DNA from: Escherichia coli | Lineage (GTDB): Bacteria > Pseudomonadota > Gammaproteobacteria > Enterobacterales > Enterobacteriaceae | Length of the DNA: 64,000 nucleotides | Strand: one strand, 5' to 3' | NCBI RefSeq assembly: GCF_013122565.1 | Contig: NZ_CP053258.1 | Part shown: positions 4,067 through 50,153 of the stretch, in pieces | Position numbering within the stretch: the first letter of the stretch is position 1 | How the letters are laid out: each line of letters opens with the position of its first letter | The notes under the pieces: generated by a model | What the model saw: only the letters and a program-made list of their open reading frames with translations | The model's database searches: none | What the model was told of the DNA's origin: nothing | Position numbers and translations under genes: made by a program

Positions 4067-4456
4067 GTTGTGTAACCTGTTGTTAATTACATCCGATCTC
4101 ACAGCGTGGGGCATGGATGGGGCAAACTCACTCTATTTCTGGTTTAAAATGGATACCTGATCATGAACGTTTTCTGCCATCCACGCTCCGTAACGCGATA
4201 ACCCCCTGAATATCAGAGTGTCTCATTTGACACATCACCACGTCGGATGTTGTTACGACCACAGACGCAACAGTAACCTCTGGATAATTTAATCTTTGTT
4301 GATGTTTTTATTCATATTCCGGGCTAGGGAAATAATCAGGCATAATTGTGTCACTGGAATAGAGGTTTCTTGTGGCGCATGTGGAAGGAGCGTCTACTAT
4401 TGTCTAATAGAGATTTCTTATTACGCAGTTTTGTTCATCACTAATCTCCAGGTTTA

Positions 4457-9658: not shown

Positions 9659-11074
9659 TTATTTCGAGTTGCTATTTGAGGTGTCGAACTGCTGTGTCAG
9701 ATAGCTACTGGTGGAGTTAAGCGAGTTCATTAACACATCTAATTGGGTGAACTGGGCTTTATAGCGCGTCATTAAGGTATCGATACGCTCACTGGCTGCG
9801 TTGTACTGGTCGGTCAAATTATTAAGCGTTTTGCTGACGCCATCTTTTGCGGCCTGGATTATCCCGGTGGAAGAGAGCCAACTGGTCAGGTTGCTACTAA
9901 TGCCGGTGGTTACCCCTGTACTTTTACCGTCACCTATAAACATTTCACCGATGCCAGCGGCATCTTTTTTTAGCGCCGTTTGCAGTTTGTCAGTCGCGAT
10001 TTCCAGCTTGCCGGTACTGGCATCGCTGGTAATGCCAATCTGTGCCAGCGTTTTATAGTTTGAACTGCTGTGAGTATTGGCGAGCAAGGTTTTAAGCTGA
10101 GTCTGGATGGTACGCAGTGTGGAGTCACCGAGTAATGCGCCATTACTGGAGTCCTGACTTTCTGCTCCGGCATCGACAGCGGTGTATTTGGTTAAGCTAC
10201 TGAATGTATCCTGCAATGTGTTATAGGCATCCACCCATGCTTTGACCGCATTTTCAGCTTTGGATGTGTCTTTATTGATGGTCAGTGTCTGATTACCGGT
10301 GGTGACGTCATTCAGGTTGAGTGTGATATCTTCCAGCGCGTCGCTGATAGTGTTACTGCTGTTTTCAATCTCAACGTTATTGACTGTCAGTTTGGCGTTT
10401 TGCGCGGTGACGCTTTCAATCATGCCATTGCTGCTATCACCCGACGTTCCGTTGTAACCCATAAAACTTTCCAGGGCGCTGTCGCCGCTGACGCTAAGTT
10501 TCATAGCGTTATCGTTGCCCGTATCGTTAGCGGTGATGGACAGACGATATTCGCCGTTTCTCACATTGATGATACTGGCGCTGACACCAGCTTTGGCGTT
10601 GTTAATGGCATCGCGAATGCCGGAAAGTGACGAGTTAGCTGCGCTGATATCAATCGTGACCGGATCTTTACCGCCGCCTTGCTGGATGGTCAGTACGCTA
10701 TCGCTGGTGGCGATGGCAGCTTTACTGTCTTTTTGACTAATTTTTGTGGTCAGCGTTTGTGCCTGCGCCAGTTGGCTAACGCTAATGGTGTATTTCCCGG
10801 CAATCGCGCTGCCCGTGGTGGTGGCGCTGAAAGCCGATGAACTGCTGGTGGTTGAAGTGGCGGTAAATAAATCGGCTTTATTCAGTGCTGTGTTGGCTGT
10901 CTGGAAACTCTCTAGTGCACTTTTCAGCGTCCCGTAGGCGCTCAGTTTCGCGGTGTAAGAGCTTTGCTGTTTTGATATCGGCGTCAGGGTAGATTTTTCT
11001 GCCGCCTCCAGACTGTCAAGGATGCTGCTTAAATCCAGCCCCGACCCAACCCCAAGCGTTGAAATACTAGCCAT
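9659..11074 (-). CDS. fliD: Flagellar filament cap protein FliD (variant allele, 471 aa)
   Basis: ORF 9659..11074, MASISTLGVGSGLDLSSILDS...; conserved termini, divergent in the middle relative to K-12 FliD (468 aa by recollection). Confidence 0.9.
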   Translation of the reverse strand: MASISTLGVGSGLDLSSILDSLEAAEKSTLTPISKQQSSYTAKLSAYGTLKSALESFQTANTALNKADLFTATSTTSSSSAFSATTTGSAIAGKYTISVSQLAQAQTLTTKISQKDSKAAIATSDSVLTIQQGGGKDPVTIDISAANSSLSGIRDAINNAKAGVSASIINVRNGEYRLSITANDTGNDNAMKLSVSGDSALESFMGYNGTSGDSSNGMIESVTAQNAKLTVNNVEIENSSNTISDALEDITLNLNDVTTGNQTLTINKDTSKAENAVKAWVDAYNTLQDTFSSLTKYTAVDAGAESQDSSNGALLGDSTLRTIQTQLKTLLANTHSSSNYKTLAQIGITSDASTGKLEIATDKLQTALKKDAAGIGEMFIGDGKSTGVTTGISSNLTSWLSSTGIIQAAKDGVSKTLNNLTDQYNAASERIDTLMTRYKAQFTQLDVLMNSLNSTSSYLTQQFDTSNSNSK

Positions 11075-11116
11075 ATAAATTCCTTAATCATGCGACGTAT
11101 AGAACGAATACCGGGG

Positions 11117-11143
11117 TTATCGGCGTAAGCGGGGCAAAGTTTA
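11117..11143 (-). promoter_or_regulatory. sigma-28 (FliA) class 3 promoter for fliDST
   Basis: + strand reads ttatcggc-N11-aaagttta, i.e. on the minus strand TAAACTTT-N11-GCCGATAA, a near-perfect match to the sigma-28 consensus TAAAGTTT-N11-GCCGATAA. Confidence 0.7.
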
Positions 11144-11216
11144 CGATTTATTTTTTGGCTTAATGACACGAACAGCAACGAGGAAGGGGAGTATTTCGAC
11201 CGCTAGAAAAAAATTC

Positions 11217-11243
11217 TAAAGGTTGTGAGTGACCAGACGATAA
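11217..11243 (+). promoter_or_regulatory. sigma-28 (FliA) class 3 promoter for fliC
   Basis: taaaggtt-N11-gacgataa upstream of fliC; close to the sigma-28 consensus. Confidence 0.65.
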
Positions 11244-11319
11244 CAGGGTTGACGGCGACGAAGCCGAAGGGTGGAAGCCCAATACTTAAACCGTAGACTT
11301 GAAAACAGGAAAATGAATC

Positions 11320-12663
11320 ATGGCACAAGTCATTAATACCAACAGCCTCTCGCTGATCACTCAGAACAACATCAACAAAAACCAGTCTGCGCTGTCGACT
11401 TCTATCGAGCGCCTCTCTTCTGGTCTGCGCATTAACAGCGCTAAAGATGACGCTGCGGGCCAGGCGATTGCTAACCGCTTCACTTCTAACATCAAAGGTC
11501 TGACTCAGGCCGCACGTAACGCCAACGACGGTATCTCTCTGGCGCAGACCACTGAAGGCGCACTGTCTGAAATCAACAACAACTTGCAGCGTGTTCGTGA
11601 ACTGACCGTTCAGGCCACTACCGGTACTAACTCTGATTCTGACCTGTCTTCAATCCAGGACGAAATCAAATCCCGTCTCGATGAAATTGACCGCGTATCC
11701 GGTCAGACTCAGTTCAACGGCGTGAACGTACTGGCAAAAGATGGCTCGATGAAAATTCAGGTCGGTGCAAATGATGGTCAGACAATCAGCATTGATTTGC
11801 AGAAGATTGATTCTTCTACTTTAGGGTTAAATGGTTTTTCTGTTTCCAAAAATGCAGTATCTGTTGGTGATGCTATTACTCAATTGCCTGGCGAGACGGC
11901 AGCCGATGCACCAGTAACCATCAAGTTTGATGATTCAGTAAAAACTGATTTAAAACTGACCGATGCTTCAGGGTTAAGTCTGCATAACCTCAAAGATGAA
12001 AATGGTAATTTAACTAACCAGTATGTTGTACAGAATGGCGGAAAATCTTACGCTGCTACAGTCGCTGCCAATGGTAATGTTACGCTGAACAAAGCAAATG
12101 TAACCTACAGCGATGTCGCAAACGGTATTGATACCGCAACGCAGTCAGGCCAGTTAGTTCAGGTTGGTGCAGATTCTACCGGTACGCCAAAAGCATTCGT
12201 GTCTGTCCAAGGTAAAAGCTTTGGCATTGATGACGCCGCCTTGAAGAATAACACTGGTGATGCTACCGCTACTCCACCGGGAGCATCTGGGACAACAGTT
12301 GTCGCAGCGTCAATTCATCTGAGTACGGGCAAAAACTCTGTAGACGCTGATGTAACGGCTTCCACTGAATTCACAGGTGCTTCAACCAACGATCCACTGA
12401 CTCTGCTGGACAAAGCTATCGCATCTGTTGATAAATTCCGTTCTTCTTTGGGGGCGGTACAGAACCGTCTGAGCTCCGCTGTAACCAACCTGAACAACAC
12501 CACCACCAACCTGTCTGAAGCGCAGTCCCGTATTCAGGACGCCGACTATGCGACCGAAGTGTCCAACATGTCGAAAGCGCAGATTATCCAGCAGGCAGGT
12601 AACTCCGTGCTGTCCAAAGCTAACCAGGTACCGCAGCAGGTTCTGTCTCTGCTGCAGGGTTAA
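11320..12663 (+). CDS. fliC: Flagellin FliC (H-antigen), 447 aa, non-K-12 serotype
   Basis: ORF 11320..12663; conserved N-terminal (MAQVINTNSLSLITQNNINKNQSALSTSIERLSSGLRINSAKDDAAGQAIANRF...) and C-terminal (...QNRLSSAVTNLNNTTTNLSEAQSRIQDADYATEVSNMSKAQIIQQAGNSVLSKANQVPQQVLSLLQG) flagellin domains flank a distinct central region; K-12 FliC is 498 aa by recollection. Confidence 0.92.
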   Translation: MAQVINTNSLSLITQNNINKNQSALSTSIERLSSGLRINSAKDDAAGQAIANRFTSNIKGLTQAARNANDGISLAQTTEGALSEINNNLQRVRELTVQATTGTNSDSDLSSIQDEIKSRLDEIDRVSGQTQFNGVNVLAKDGSMKIQVGANDGQTISIDLQKIDSSTLGLNGFSVSKNAVSVGDAITQLPGETAADAPVTIKFDDSVKTDLKLTDASGLSLHNLKDENGNLTNQYVVQNGGKSYAATVAANGNVTLNKANVTYSDVANGIDTATQSGQLVQVGADSTGTPKAFVSVQGKSFGIDDAALKNNTGDATATPPGASGTTVVAASIHLSTGKNSVDADVTASTEFTGASTNDPLTLLDKAIASVDKFRSSLGAVQNRLSSAVTNLNNTTTNLSEAQSRIQDADYATEVSNMSKAQIIQQAGNSVLSKANQVPQQVLSLLQG

Positions 12664-12706
12664 TCGTCGTAACCTGATTAACTGAGACTGACGGCAACGC
12701 CAAATT

Positions 12707-12806
<100 letters not shown>

Positions 12807-12835
12807 ACATCAAGCGCAATTTGTCAGCAACGTGC

Positions 12836-12861
12836 TCCCCCGCCACCGGCGGGGTTTTTTC
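12836..12861 (+). terminator. Rho-independent terminator downstream of fliC
   Basis: GC-rich hairpin ccccgccaccggcgggg followed by a T run. Confidence 0.7.
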
Positions 12862-12930
12862 TGTCCGCAATTTACCGGTAACCCCCAAATAACCCCTCAT
12901 TTCACCCACTAATCGTCCGATTAAAAACCC

Positions 12931-12957
12931 TGCAGAAACGGATAATCATGCCGATAA
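12931..12957 (+). promoter_or_regulatory. Putative fliA promoter element (sigma-28 -10-like GCCGATAA at 12950..12957)
   Basis: Exact GCCGATAA 26 nt upstream of the fliA GTG; the -35 match is poor, so the assignment is tentative. Confidence 0.35.
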
Positions 12958-12982
12958 CTCATATAACGCAGGGCTGTTTATC

Positions 12983-13702
12983 GTGAATTCACTCTATACC
13001 GCTGAAGGTGTAATGGATAAACACTCGCTGTGGCAGCGTTATGTCCCGCTGGTGCGTCACGAAGCATTGCGCCTGCAGGTTCGACTGCCCGCGAGCGTGG
13101 AACTTGACGATCTGCTACAGGCGGGCGGCATTGGGTTACTTAATGCCGTCGAACGCTATGACGCCCTACAAGGAACGGCATTTACAACTTACGCAGTGCA
13201 GCGTATCCGTGGCGCTATGTTGGATGAACTTCGCAGCCGTGACTGGGTGCCGCGCAGCGTGCGACGCAACGCGCGTGAAGTGGCACAGGCAATAGGGCAA
13301 CTGGAGCAGGAACTTGGCCGCAACGCCACGGAAACTGAGGTAGCGGAACGTTTAGGGATCGATATTGCCGATTATCGCCAAATGTTGCTCGACACCAATA
13401 ACAGCCAGCTCTTCTCCTACGATGAGTGGCGCGAAGAGCACGGCGATAGCATCGAACTGGTTACTGATGATCATCAGCGAGAAAACCCGCTACAACAACT
13501 GCTGGACAGTAATCTGCGTCAGCGGGTGATGGAAGCCATCGAAACGTTGCCGGAGCGCGAAAAACTGGTATTAACCCTCTATTACCAGGAAGAGCTGAAT
13601 CTCAAAGAGATTGGCGCGGTGCTGGAGGTCGGGGAATCGCGGGTCAGTCAGTTACACAGCCAGGCTATTAAACGGTTACGCACTAAACTGGGTAAGTTAT
13701 AA
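12983..13702 (+). CDS. fliA: Flagellar sigma factor sigma-28 (FliA)
   Basis: ORF 12983..13702 (GTG start), 239 aa, ...NSLYTAEGVMDKHSLWQRYVPLVRHEALRL...; full-length match to FliA. Confidence 0.95.
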   Translation: MNSLYTAEGVMDKHSLWQRYVPLVRHEALRLQVRLPASVELDDLLQAGGIGLLNAVERYDALQGTAFTTYAVQRIRGAMLDELRSRDWVPRSVRRNAREVAQAIGQLEQELGRNATETEVAERLGIDIADYRQMLLDTNNSQLFSYDEWREEHGDSIELVTDDHQRENPLQQLLDSNLRQRVMEAIETLPEREKLVLTLYYQEELNLKEIGAVLEVGESRVSQLHSQAIKRLRTKLGKL

Positions 13703-13747
13703 CGTCAGTAAATGCCGCACTTTAACTTTGACTACCAGGAGTTCTTA

Positions 13748-14299
13748 ATGATGGTGCAGCACCTGAAAAGACGGCCATTAAGCCGCTATCTTAAAGACTT
13801 TAAACACAGCCAGACCCATTGCGCGCATTGCCGTAAATTACTCGATCGCATTACCTTAGTTCGCGACGGCAAAATAGTGAATAAAATCGAGATTTCCCGC
13901 CTGGACACGCTGCTTGATGAAAATGGCTGGCAAACGGAACAAAAATCATGGGCGGCATTGTGCCGATTTTGCGGTGATTTACATTGCAAAACGCAGAGTG
14001 ATTTTTTCGATATTATCGGCTTTAAGCAATTTCTTTTTGAGCAAACTGAAATGAGCCCTGGTACGGTGCGTGAATATGTCGTTCGTCTGCGCCGTTTGGG
14101 GAATCATCTACATGAGCAAAATATTTCCCTCGATCAGCTGCAGGACGGTTTCCTTGATGAAATCCTCGCCCCGTGGCTGCCCACCACCAGCACCAACAAT
14201 TACCGCATCGCATTACGGAAGTATCAACACTATCAGCGTCAAACGTGTACCGGACTTGTGCAGAAATCCTCCAGCCTGCCTGCTTCTGATATATATTAA
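13748..14299 (+). CDS. fliZ: Flagellar regulatory protein FliZ
   Basis: ORF 13712..14299 trimmed to MMVQHLKRRPLSRYLKDF... at 13748, 183 aa. Confidence 0.9.
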   Translation: MMVQHLKRRPLSRYLKDFKHSQTHCAHCRKLLDRITLVRDGKIVNKIEISRLDTLLDENGWQTEQKSWAALCRFCGDLHCKTQSDFFDIIGFKQFLFEQTEMSPGTVREYVVRLRRLGNHLHEQNISLDQLQDGFLDEILAPWLPTTSTNNYRIALRKYQHYQRQTCTGLVQKSSSLPASDIY

Positions 14300-14386
14300 A
14301 TAAGAATAAGATGTAGCGGAGTTGTTTTTGTGTTTACAAACAATGGCTCTACACTGCAAACAGACATAACAACATTCGGGGTGAAT

Positions 14387-16278
<1,892 letters not shown>

Positions 16279-35016: not shown

Positions 35017-35518
35017 AACCTGTTCCTTATTCTGTGAACTTCAGGTGACATTAAAGCTTTACTCCTAATGGAGAAACGACGCAATCCCAACTCAGTCAAA
35101 CAGGTAAATATTAGTCTGATTATTAGTAAAGACAATTAAACAATTGCTTCCGGTGATCATATGATTTCAAATGTAATTATAAGAAAATAGTGTACTGATT
35201 CTCCGCATTAAACAAGTGGTTAATATATGTAAAACATTTTATTAACATTAAGTTGATTGTTGCCTTTCTTTGTATTTAATCAGTTTGTTGTGCGGTAAGT
35301 GTCTGTTTAAAAATAGCTTATCTGGTATTGCATGAAAGTGATTATTTATAGCAGATGATTATTTACGGTGAGTTATTTTAACTGTGCGCAACATCCCATT
35401 TCGATTATTCCTGTTTCATTTTTGCTTGCTAGCGTTGCGAAAAACTTTTTAACAGATTGAAATACACCCAAAACAAAAGTATGACTTATACATTTATGTT
35501 AATTAATTGAGTGTTTTG

Positions 35519-47600: not shown

Positions 47601-47618
47601 TTTGTATTGCCTGAACTT

Positions 47619-47643
47619 CGGCCTGCGCGATGATGCCAGGCCG
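47619..47643. terminator. Hairpin between convergent cheZ and the inserted nucleotidyltransferase gene
   Basis: Inverted repeat cggcctg...caggccg 19 nt after the cheZ stop; no strong T-run, so weak. Confidence 0.35.
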
Positions 47644-47687
47644 ATAGCAGGGTGGCGAGTATCGTTCAGGGAGTACGTGGAGGATGG

Positions 47688-48440
47688 TTATTTGTAGTTT
47701 GATAATTTTAGATCAGCGAAGCGTGTTTGTTGCGCCAGTAAATTTATCAACGCATTAAATTGTGAACGAGAAAATGACGATGACTGGTAGTGCAGTACAT
47801 CGTAATGATGCCAAACTTCATAACGTTTTTTCGTCAGTTCATGGTGCAAGAAATGACAGAGTTCCGGACCTAAACTCTTTACCTGCTTAGTAAAAATAGT
47901 GCGTAAAATCTTCGTTACCGAACCGCTTGGATTGGGGTTAGTATGAAGAACAAGTTCAAGATGTCTGCGATTTAAGTCGGTCAAATAATTATCTTTACTG
48001 ATAATTTTTTCACTACGTAGATCATAGAGCACGGCATCCCAACTCATTAGCGTAGTGTTTAACAGACTTGATTCATCCTCACAAAATATAAGTTTTTCCC
48101 GAAATGCCCATGTCTCATTGAGGTTCCAGATATCAAATTCGAAGTCGTGATAACGAAAACGGATCCCACCGAACTTATTAAAACGCAGTTGTTTAACGGG
48201 CAATTCAGCCAATGTCCGGAAGAGTTCCTCACGGGAGCGACCGATGACGATATCAAGGTCTGAAGAAAATCCTTCGACGCCAAACAAGCCTAAGTCACGC
48301 ACCATCCCGCCAAAAATCCAGGCCGGACAGGAACAGGCCAGAGTATCAAGTAATACTCTGGCTTTCTTATGCTCATCACTAAGCGTAAAAAAATCGGCGA
48401 TACGCTGTTCAAGCTGTTGGGTGTTTGAGACCACATTCAT
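47688..48440 (-). CDS. Pol-beta-superfamily nucleotidyltransferase (CCA/MNT/SMODS-like fold), function unknown; downstream gene of inserted operon
   Basis: ORF 47688..48440, 250 aa; nucleotidyltransferase signature ...AWIFGGMVRDLGLFGVEGFSSDLDIVIG... (hG[GS]-x9-13-DhDh) with a third acidic residue in ...HDFEFDIWNL...; start overlaps upstream gene by 32 nt; no equivalent gene between cheZ and flhB in K-12 as I recall; AT-rich. Confidence 0.7.
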   Translation of the reverse strand: MNVVSNTQQLEQRIADFFTLSDEHKKARVLLDTLACSCPAWIFGGMVRDLGLFGVEGFSSDLDIVIGRSREELFRTLAELPVKQLRFNKFGGIRFRYHDFEFDIWNLNETWAFREKLIFCEDESSLLNTTLMSWDAVLYDLRSEKIISKDNYLTDLNRRHLELVLHTNPNPSGSVTKILRTIFTKQVKSLGPELCHFLHHELTKKRYEVWHHYDVLHYQSSSFSRSQFNALINLLAQQTRFADLKLSNYK

Positions 48441-49917
48441 ACAGTGATTTTAGCTCATCGTGAAGGCGCATTAAATAACTATCCGTCATGCCTGAGATTG
48501 CGTCGGTAAGCAACTGCGCTTCTTTATAAAGAATAGGGAGTGTATTGGCGGGATCTTCAAACACACGGCGATAATTTTCAGAGATTGTCCCGTAAGCATA
48601 GCGACCAAAGGGAGTATCCGATAGGTATTCTTCACGAGAAACAAAAAGGTTATCTGCAGACGCGGACTCGCGTTCTCCGTCTCGTTCTTTCTTTGTTTTG
48701 TGTCCATGGATGCCAATCCAGAGCATATCCATCAAGTTAGTAATGTAATTAGACCCCCTAAGTTCCAGTTGCAAGACTGAACGATGAAGGTAGCCTCGTG
48801 TTCGGTCGAACATTTTCAGGGCAGTGCAGAGAGCGTGACCTTTGCTTTGCGAGATTAAATCTTTGAACGGGCAGTCACGCTGCATCAGCGTGGGTAATTG
48901 TTCGCGAAAGGCTTCAACTACGGCATTAATCAATGCACTGGTGGCATACACTCTGAACATTTGCATACTGAGTTCATTAATTTCTGCCGGTGAAAGTGCA
49001 TTTCTTTGCTCTTTCCAGGCGTCATTTTTGGCCTCTACAGCTTTAATAACATTTTCAATTACATCGTTCGACTCGGATTGTGACATCAAAAAATCACGCA
49101 AATCCTGGTATGAGGCAAATCCTTTCTTGATGGTATCTTCTGCGTCAAGCACAGAGTAGGCAATATCGTCGCAAGCTTCCATTATCCAGGTAAATGGGTG
49201 GCGGCAACCGGCATCATTACCTGGTACGCCAAGGCCCGTTTGCTGCCAGACATCCATGACAACCTCATGCTCAGAATAGAAAAAACCGTGTTTTTTCCAA
49301 TGTTTGTCCGATGAATATGAAGCTCGGGGATATTTGATCAGTGCAGCCAGCGTGGCATAGGTCAGATTCAGACCAAAGTTATCGTTAATAATTTGTAATT
49401 TGGTAACCAGGCGCAGGGTTTGTGAGTTTCCATCAAATTGCAGAAAGTCGTTATATATTTCGCTGTTTACTTCTTTATCAAGAAGGCCTGGAAGATTTTT
49501 ATTAAACCATGCGCGCATCGCTGCTTCACCTTGATGCCCAAATGGTGGATTACCGAGATCGTGTGCCAGTCCGATCGCTGCTAACAGAGCAGGAACGTCG
49601 CGTTCAACGACAATCCCCGTGGGTATTTCGCCAAAGATGTGTTCCTTCATCTCGAAAGCGAGCCTCATTCCTATTCCGCGAGCAAAGTTTGCTACTTCGT
49701 GAGAATGAGTCAGCCTCGTCCGTATACTGTCATTTTGATCTAACGGGAAAACTTGTGTTTTATCCGCCAGCCGACGAGTTGGCGCAGCAAAAAGTAATCG
49801 GTCGTAATCCCGCTCGATCTCTTGTCTTCCGCGAGCAAGGGGATGTAAAAATTCTATGCTGGTTTTTTTTAGATTATCTTTTCGACGGTTGCAGTTAAGC
49901 AATTGTTGCCATTCCAT
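48409..49917 (-). CDS. Dgt-family dNTP (dGTP) triphosphohydrolase paralogue (HD domain); upstream gene of inserted operon
   Basis: ORF 48409..49917, 502 aa; Dgt hallmark motifs: DKTQVFPLDQNDSIRTRLTHSHEV (HD histidine), GLAHDLGNPPFGHQGE (HD aspartate), FDGNSQTLRLV, HPFTWIMEACDDIAYSVLDAEDTIKKG, LTDAISGMTDSYL; RBS aagg 7-8 nt before ATG; AT-rich. Confidence 0.82.
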   Translation of the reverse strand: MEWQQLLNCNRRKDNLKKTSIEFLHPLARGRQEIERDYDRLLFAAPTRRLADKTQVFPLDQNDSIRTRLTHSHEVANFARGIGMRLAFEMKEHIFGEIPTGIVVERDVPALLAAIGLAHDLGNPPFGHQGEAAMRAWFNKNLPGLLDKEVNSEIYNDFLQFDGNSQTLRLVTKLQIINDNFGLNLTYATLAALIKYPRASYSSDKHWKKHGFFYSEHEVVMDVWQQTGLGVPGNDAGCRHPFTWIMEACDDIAYSVLDAEDTIKKGFASYQDLRDFLMSQSESNDVIENVIKAVEAKNDAWKEQRNALSPAEINELSMQMFRVYATSALINAVVEAFREQLPTLMQRDCPFKDLISQSKGHALCTALKMFDRTRGYLHRSVLQLELRGSNYITNLMDMLWIGIHGHKTKKERDGERESASADNLFVSREEYLSDTPFGRYAYGTISENYRRVFEDPANTLPILYKEAQLLTDAISGMTDSYLMRLHDELKSLYECGLKHPTA

Positions 49918-50153
49918 TTGATCGCCTTTGTAATAATTTAATTATTAGCAAACTAACAGAGAGACGGTGGGCGATTCTATAGGCTAAATGGCTAAATATC
50001 AGAACTGGAAAATGGTTCGCAAAACGTTCTGCAACTGAACCTATTTTTTGCATAAACGTCCTAAATCCCGCCTGTTTTGCCCCTTACTCAAACCATTGAA
50101 CGCTTTGCGCTCTGGCATCATTTACGCTTAATACTCTTTCCAGGATTGGCGAC

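Follow-up and report, generated by a model that had tools for sequence, protein, structure and literature searches.

Flagellins share a common plan, in which the conserved ends of the protein form the D0/D1 core, through which the subunit is exported, polymerises beneath the FliD cap and is recognised by TLR5, and in which the central domain, displayed on the surface of the filament, constitutes the H antigen. Among the described systems, FliC of Escherichia coli K-12 (H48; filament core structure PDB 8CXM) was used as our reference, with the 498-residue protein taken from NC_000913.3 and pairwise identity evaluated in blocks of 25 residues. The fliC gene in the window, by which we mean the whole 64-kb stretch of E. 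coli DNA that was analysed, resembles its K-12 counterpart in the ends of the protein, in the locus and in the boxes of the sigma-28 promoter, but differs from it in a central portion of 175 residues with low identity, in a total length which is larger by 51 residues in K-12, and in the linked fliD, which belongs to another allele family. We propose that the product of this chromosomal fliC is the subunit of a flagellar filament with H-antigen type H38, a reading derived from sequence comparison to which we assign a probability of about 0.93.

The gene spans positions 11320–12663 of the plus strand, stop codon included, and its designation as an H38 allele of fliC draws on the intact reading frame, the Pfam domains, the matches in other genomes and sequence words characteristic of H38. 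In the list of open reading frames of the window it appears as an intact frame of 447 codons with an ATG start, and its product scores well above the gathering cut-offs for both Flagellin_N (PF00669; residues 5–140, 158.5 bits against 26.6) and Flagellin_C (PF00700; residues 361–445, 109.6 bits against 23), so that the 447-residue flagellin described in an earlier note on this DNA is borne out. Solved flagellins of the PDB align over the conserved ends with E-values down to 1e-142. Three parts could be delimited, all on the plus strand: a conserved N-terminal part with the D0/D1 helices and the beta-hairpin (residues 1–175; 11320–11844), a central hypervariable, surface-exposed domain to which the H38 specificity is ascribed (residues 176–350; 11845–12369), and a conserved C-terminal part with the D1/D0 helices (residues 351–447; 12370–12660). 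The outer parts were recognised from their identity to K-12, on the C-terminal side also from Flagellin_C, and the centre from its divergence from K-12, its rarity in blastn searches, its GC3 and an AF2 model. GC3 amounts to 0.35 in the centre as against 0.54 in the N-terminal and 0.62 in the C-terminal part, low GC3 being a general trait of fliC central regions. The translation also keeps LQRVRELTVQ, which we take to be the TLR5-region motif whose role is known from Salmonella FliC.

Amino acid identity to K-12 FliC is 96–100% over residues 1–150, drops to 72% over residues 151–175 and to 20–44% over residues 176–350, and rises again to 64% over residues 351–375 and 95–100% over residues 376–447. 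At the DNA level, identity stays below 75% from ~11750 to ~12500. The conserved D0/D1 ends that the earlier note had claimed could hence be confirmed on both sides, as could a length of about 50 residues less than in K-12 (447 against 498, that is 51 fewer) and a central region unlike that of K-12, which had been placed at roughly 11850–12330 and proves slightly wider in the DNA; K-12 identity running across the centre, which would have spoken for the K-12 antigen, is absent. The centre, with 52–62% nucleotide identity in addition to the low amino acid identity, is not that of H48, and since it is both shorter than the K-12 centre and different from it, lying between conserved D0/D1-coding ends, the gene encodes an H antigen other than H48. 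The gene looks functional and would be expected to be expressed; from the 95–100% identity of the D0/D1 segments to K-12 FliC we infer that its product would leave the cell through the flagellar type III system and polymerise into a filament.

For the assignment of the H type, twelve words of 10–11 bases from the fliC centre were sought in an alignment of 53 SerotypeFinder reference H-antigen genes (supplementary PDF of PMC7168681), available to us as machine-read text that contains errors. Eight of the twelve were found exactly once each, always in row H38_AY250018.1, the sole row matched among the 53, and two of the four missing words are missing because of real substitutions which are visible in this very row. 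It reads ...actcaaccgg/gaacatctggg where the window has actccaccgggagcatctggg, resulting in Q319P and T322A in the window. The reference AY250018.1 of the SerotypeFinder set and the window thus share gene, locus and a size class of ~1.34 kb, and differ, when compared through the machine-read text, in at least two codons, namely caa and aca (Q, T) in the reference against cca and gca (P319, A322) in the window. The second line of evidence comes from sequence type ST695. HeN100, a member of this type, carries a fliC allele 99.8% identical to that of the window; RXD100, likewise ST695 and from the same laboratory as HeN100, was typed O99:H38 (PMC6920953), and the same serotype was given for a Spanish canine ST695 isolate in an independent study (PMC7716232). 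A literature search on the names and accessions of carrier strains brought up a single serotype statement, O99:H8 in the HeN100 paper (PMC6920969). This is probably a misprint, as HeN100 carries the H38 form of fliC and further ST695 isolates have been typed O99:H38, and because the fliC centre matches no further genome in the collection, which argues against a common type like H8. We rejected H8 for the window, whose fliC centre matches only 30 listed genomes of 5426. With the words confined to the H38_AY250018.1 row and ST695 typed O99:H38 elsewhere, we assign the allele to H38. The non-K-12 H antigen proposed in the earlier note, where the type was left unnamed, is therefore supported and can now be given a name; expression, assembly into filaments and reactivity with H38 antiserum would be predicted for it.

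Among 5426 complete E. coli genomes, 29 carry an allele with 99.3–99.9% identity over the full length of fliC, annotated in every case as FliC/FljB family flagellin. The central 501 bases, searched with blastn in 'distant' mode, match only 30 of these 5426 genomes, and 29 genomes other than that of the window, HeN100 among them, share the central DNA at 98.8–99.8% identity. An allele present in 29 to 30 of 5426 genomes can therefore be considered an uncommon H type without a close DNA relative among the other H types. Its carriers, ST48 and ST695 included, stem from pigs, poultry, dogs, humans, wildlife and water. The identical protein is deposited at NCBI (QJU23870.1 / WP_171459259.1) and is one of 88 members of a cluster formed at 90% identity, in which every source name is the unspecific 'FliC/FljB family flagellin'. 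Position 322 is a threonine in all ten full-length members that were compared (among 40 listed of the cluster of 88) and an alanine in the window. fliC-H38 is an ordinary, catalogued and already known, if uncommon, allele, of which the window copy is a minor variant with P319 and A322.

The fliC of E. coli HS-01 (NZ_CP172817.1; L003, 3001–4373) is annotated as a frameshifted pseudogene. Its ends are almost identical to those of the window, a single substitution close to the 3′ end excepted; a central stretch of ~430 nt and a short patch at gene position ~1066–1078 are full of substitutions and indels, leaving the centre 79.8% identical. We rejected the notion of a separate, related H type in HS-01, given the near-identical ends and a centre that consists of H38 sequence interrupted by many indels. 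The state of the HS-01 gene stems either from a local error in assembly or polishing or from the decay of an H38 gene.

The divergence from K-12 extends beyond fliC. The neighbouring fliD, encoding the filament cap (471 aa; 9659–11074, minus strand; recognised from the list of open reading frames and the K-12 comparison), is a divergent allele linked to fliC, with 80% amino acid identity to K-12 FliD and 65–79% DNA identity over the whole gene. The K-12-divergent block consequently reaches from ~9650, the fliD stop codon, to ~12500, is wider than the fliC centre and includes all of fliD. Within it, identity to K-12 is 71–75% in the fliD–fliC intergenic region, 88–92% in the 5′ part of fliC and 52–62% in the fliC centre, and on both sides the flanks of the block are 95–100% identical to K-12. 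This allele family, to which the fliD–fliC intergenic region also belongs (9659–11319), is common, being found in 1325 of 5426 genomes (about 24%), one of them an O25b:H4-ST131 strain, and at least one carrier of H38, strain D4, has another fliD; fliD can thus be regarded as dimorphic and only loosely linked to the H type. In comparison with ET201 (L002), the window shows a single difference over ~10800–14800, a segment that covers the 5′ part of fliD, fliC, fliA, fliZ and the start of tcyJ, against 3–14 differences per 500 bp to the left of it and 4–9 per 500 bp to its right (~1–3%). This pattern suggests that the segment of ~4 kb is a recombination import shared by two genetic backgrounds. 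fliC is a known recombination hot spot, and the divergence, the GC3, the ET201 pattern and the sequence types of the carriers all fit this picture, none of them being new.

The gene order of the locus, as judged from the map of open reading frames, the annotations and the colinear K-12 alignment, equals that of K-12 and ET201, with fliT-fliS-fliD divergent from fliC-fliA-fliZ-tcyJ-dcyD and fliA located downstream of fliC at 12983–13702. By pattern matching, a putative sigma-28 (FliA) class 3 promoter of fliC could be located at 11217–11243 on the plus strand, TAAAGGTT-N11-GACGATAA, its boxes and spacing being identical to those in the upstream region of K-12 fliC; its function is predicted at the level of the motif, from the homology to K-12. 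A candidate sigma-28-type promoter of fliD, TAAACTTT-N11-GCCGATAA, was matched in the same manner at 11117–11143 on the minus strand. The fliC 3′ region together with the fliC–fliA spacer (12664–12982, plus strand) is 96–99% identical to K-12 and corresponds to a K-12 stretch annotated as sRNA FliX. It contains REP-like repeats at 12728–12811, which are matches to the REP-derived Rfam models naRNA4 and ES036, and a GC-rich hairpin followed by a T-run at ~12837–12861, a terminator picked by eye.

Beyond this locus, the window departs from K-12 at further sites. Between cheZ and flhB it carries an insertion of 2.4 kb (47614–50060) with two open reading frames on the minus strand, one for a 502-residue HD-domain protein (48409–49917) that matches a dGTPase defence model of PADLOC with E=5e-71, the other for an unannotated product of 250 residues (47688–48440), which overlaps the dGTPase-family frame by 32 nt and for which no Pfam or PADLOC match was obtained. 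The two frames are a candidate two-gene anti-phage system in the flagellar/chemotaxis region. Between yedK and fliE, 66 bp (4334–4399) stand in place of ~1.9 kb of K-12 (2010546–2012431, with yedL and the yedN pseudogene). At ~35491–35498, the window is without the IS1 that is found upstream of flhDC in K-12 MG1655, so that the flhDC regulatory region is uninterrupted.

Outside the H38 cluster, the nearest flagellins from a full-length search are proteins of 440–450 residues labelled Pantoea anthophila, Buttiauxella brennerae and Enterobacter spp., together with metagenomic entries, with central domains 73–33% identical to that of H38. The full-length search was needed because a word-filtered search restricted to the central domain gave just seven fragmentary protein matches. 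According to their database labels, the closest centres belong to Pantoea anthophila (P0024, 73%) and Buttiauxella brennerae (P0028, 68%), and in E. coli flagellins of similar length outside H38 the centre is 35–47% identical. The conserved ends of P0024 and P0028 are 92–97% identical to the E. coli protein, and their centres are closer to it than those of any other E. coli H type; this closeness suggests either exchange of flagellins between genera or mislabelled assemblies. In the published alignment, H38 is placed beside H29, H33, H39, H42, H5, H56 and H52 (PMC7168681). These short H types and the flagellins of 425–465 residues from Enterobacter, Pantoea, Buttiauxella, Scandinavium, Kluyvera and cryptic Escherichia clades resemble the window protein in length and have centres that can be aligned with it, but these centres are only 33–73% identical and represent distinct antigens. 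Invariant or nearly invariant central positions in an alignment of 59 sequences include V236, G252, L256, N257, G269, Q297, G298 and K299.

Structure prediction with AF2 yielded a useless model when run without an alignment (mean pLDDT 45) and a moderate one with the 59-sequence alignment (mean pLDDT 69.8, pTM 0.43), which is good only in the central beta domain. In this model the centre is predicted to be rich in beta structure, with block means of pLDDT of 83–88 over ~180–300 and 330–350 (75 in one block, 73 over 301–310), and the low-confidence loop 311–325 holds P319 and A322, the two private substitutions of the window. Foldseek matched the model to Salmonella and E. coli filament structures with E ~1e-20 and thereby confirmed the flagellin fold; the TM-scores stayed at ~0.2, as the packing of the long helices in the model is not that of a filament. 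The best full-length fold match is FliC of Salmonella Typhimurium (1UCU / 9GNZ; 42–44% identity), which has the same D0/D1 architecture but differs in the sequence and size of its outer domains and in total length (494 against 447 aa). A phmmer comparison of the central domain with the sequences of PDB chains gave no significant match. For an outer domain that has no solved relative detectable in this way, a property of its own, such as outer-domain contacts with an effect on the filament surface or on motility, or adhesion, could be imagined, just as P319 and A322, in a loop predicted to be flexible, could alter antigenicity or the domain family could derive from Pantoea- or Buttiauxella-like Enterobacterales; we consider such departures from an ordinary H38 flagellin quite unlikely.

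The two substitutions also bear on whether the H type encoded in the window might be novel or distinct and only similar to H38, as would be the case for an unnamed variant without reactivity towards H38 antiserum. The window differs from the reference row at both positions and at residue 322 also from the cluster members compared, and both residues sit in the surface domain, in the loop that is modelled with low confidence. Against this stand the mere 2–4 of 447 residues that differ within a cluster of at least 90% identity, the near identity of the central DNA to that of 29 genomes including the ST695 strain HeN100, and the distance to the next nearest centres, which are just 67–73% identical and, where named to species, come from other genera. 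A separate type is thus extremely improbable, and H38 remains the preferred assignment. As to the origin of the H38 centre, a recent import from another genus of the Enterobacterales, in place of an old E. coli allele, would agree with the Pantoea anthophila and Buttiauxella brennerae labels of the closest named centres, as compared with the much lower values for E. coli flagellins of similar length, and with the low GC3 of the centre. We nevertheless find it unlikely, since 67–73% identity is far from what a recent donor would show, the species labels are derived from databases, and low GC3 is established as a general feature of fliC centres; such an import would, moreover, concern the history of the allele and leave the functional reading as an H38 flagellin untouched.

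An intact fliC need not be displayed, either if the strain is non-motile or if a flagellin at a second locus (of the flk, fll or flm type) represses it. Some E. coli H-type strains do express a flagellin other than that of fliC and retain a silent fliC, and our view covers only 64 kb of the genome, both of which favour such a scenario. Within this window, however, tblastn found no second flagellin gene, and the fliC promoter, fliA, fliZ, fliD/S/T, flhDC, the mot/che genes and flhBAE align to K-12 at ~98% and are undisrupted apart from the 2.4-kb insertion between cheZ and flhB, so that we regard an undisplayed fliC as very unlikely.

We therefore favour a model for H38 in which fliC would be transcribed from its FliA (sigma-28) promoter, like the K-12 counterpart, the D0/D1 helices from the conserved ends would build the filament core, and the central domain of ~175 residues would be exposed at the filament surface and present the serotype-specific epitopes. 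The H38 allele would lie in a recombination-prone fliD–fliC block, and homologous recombination may have moved it among E. coli lineages. For the strain at hand, the predicted H antigen H38 is useful for its epidemiological description, with little import beyond typing and no new question opened by it. The serotype-determining block of the strain includes the co-inherited divergent fliD, and the locus may serve as another illustration of how fliC alleles pass between E. coli lineages through recombination.
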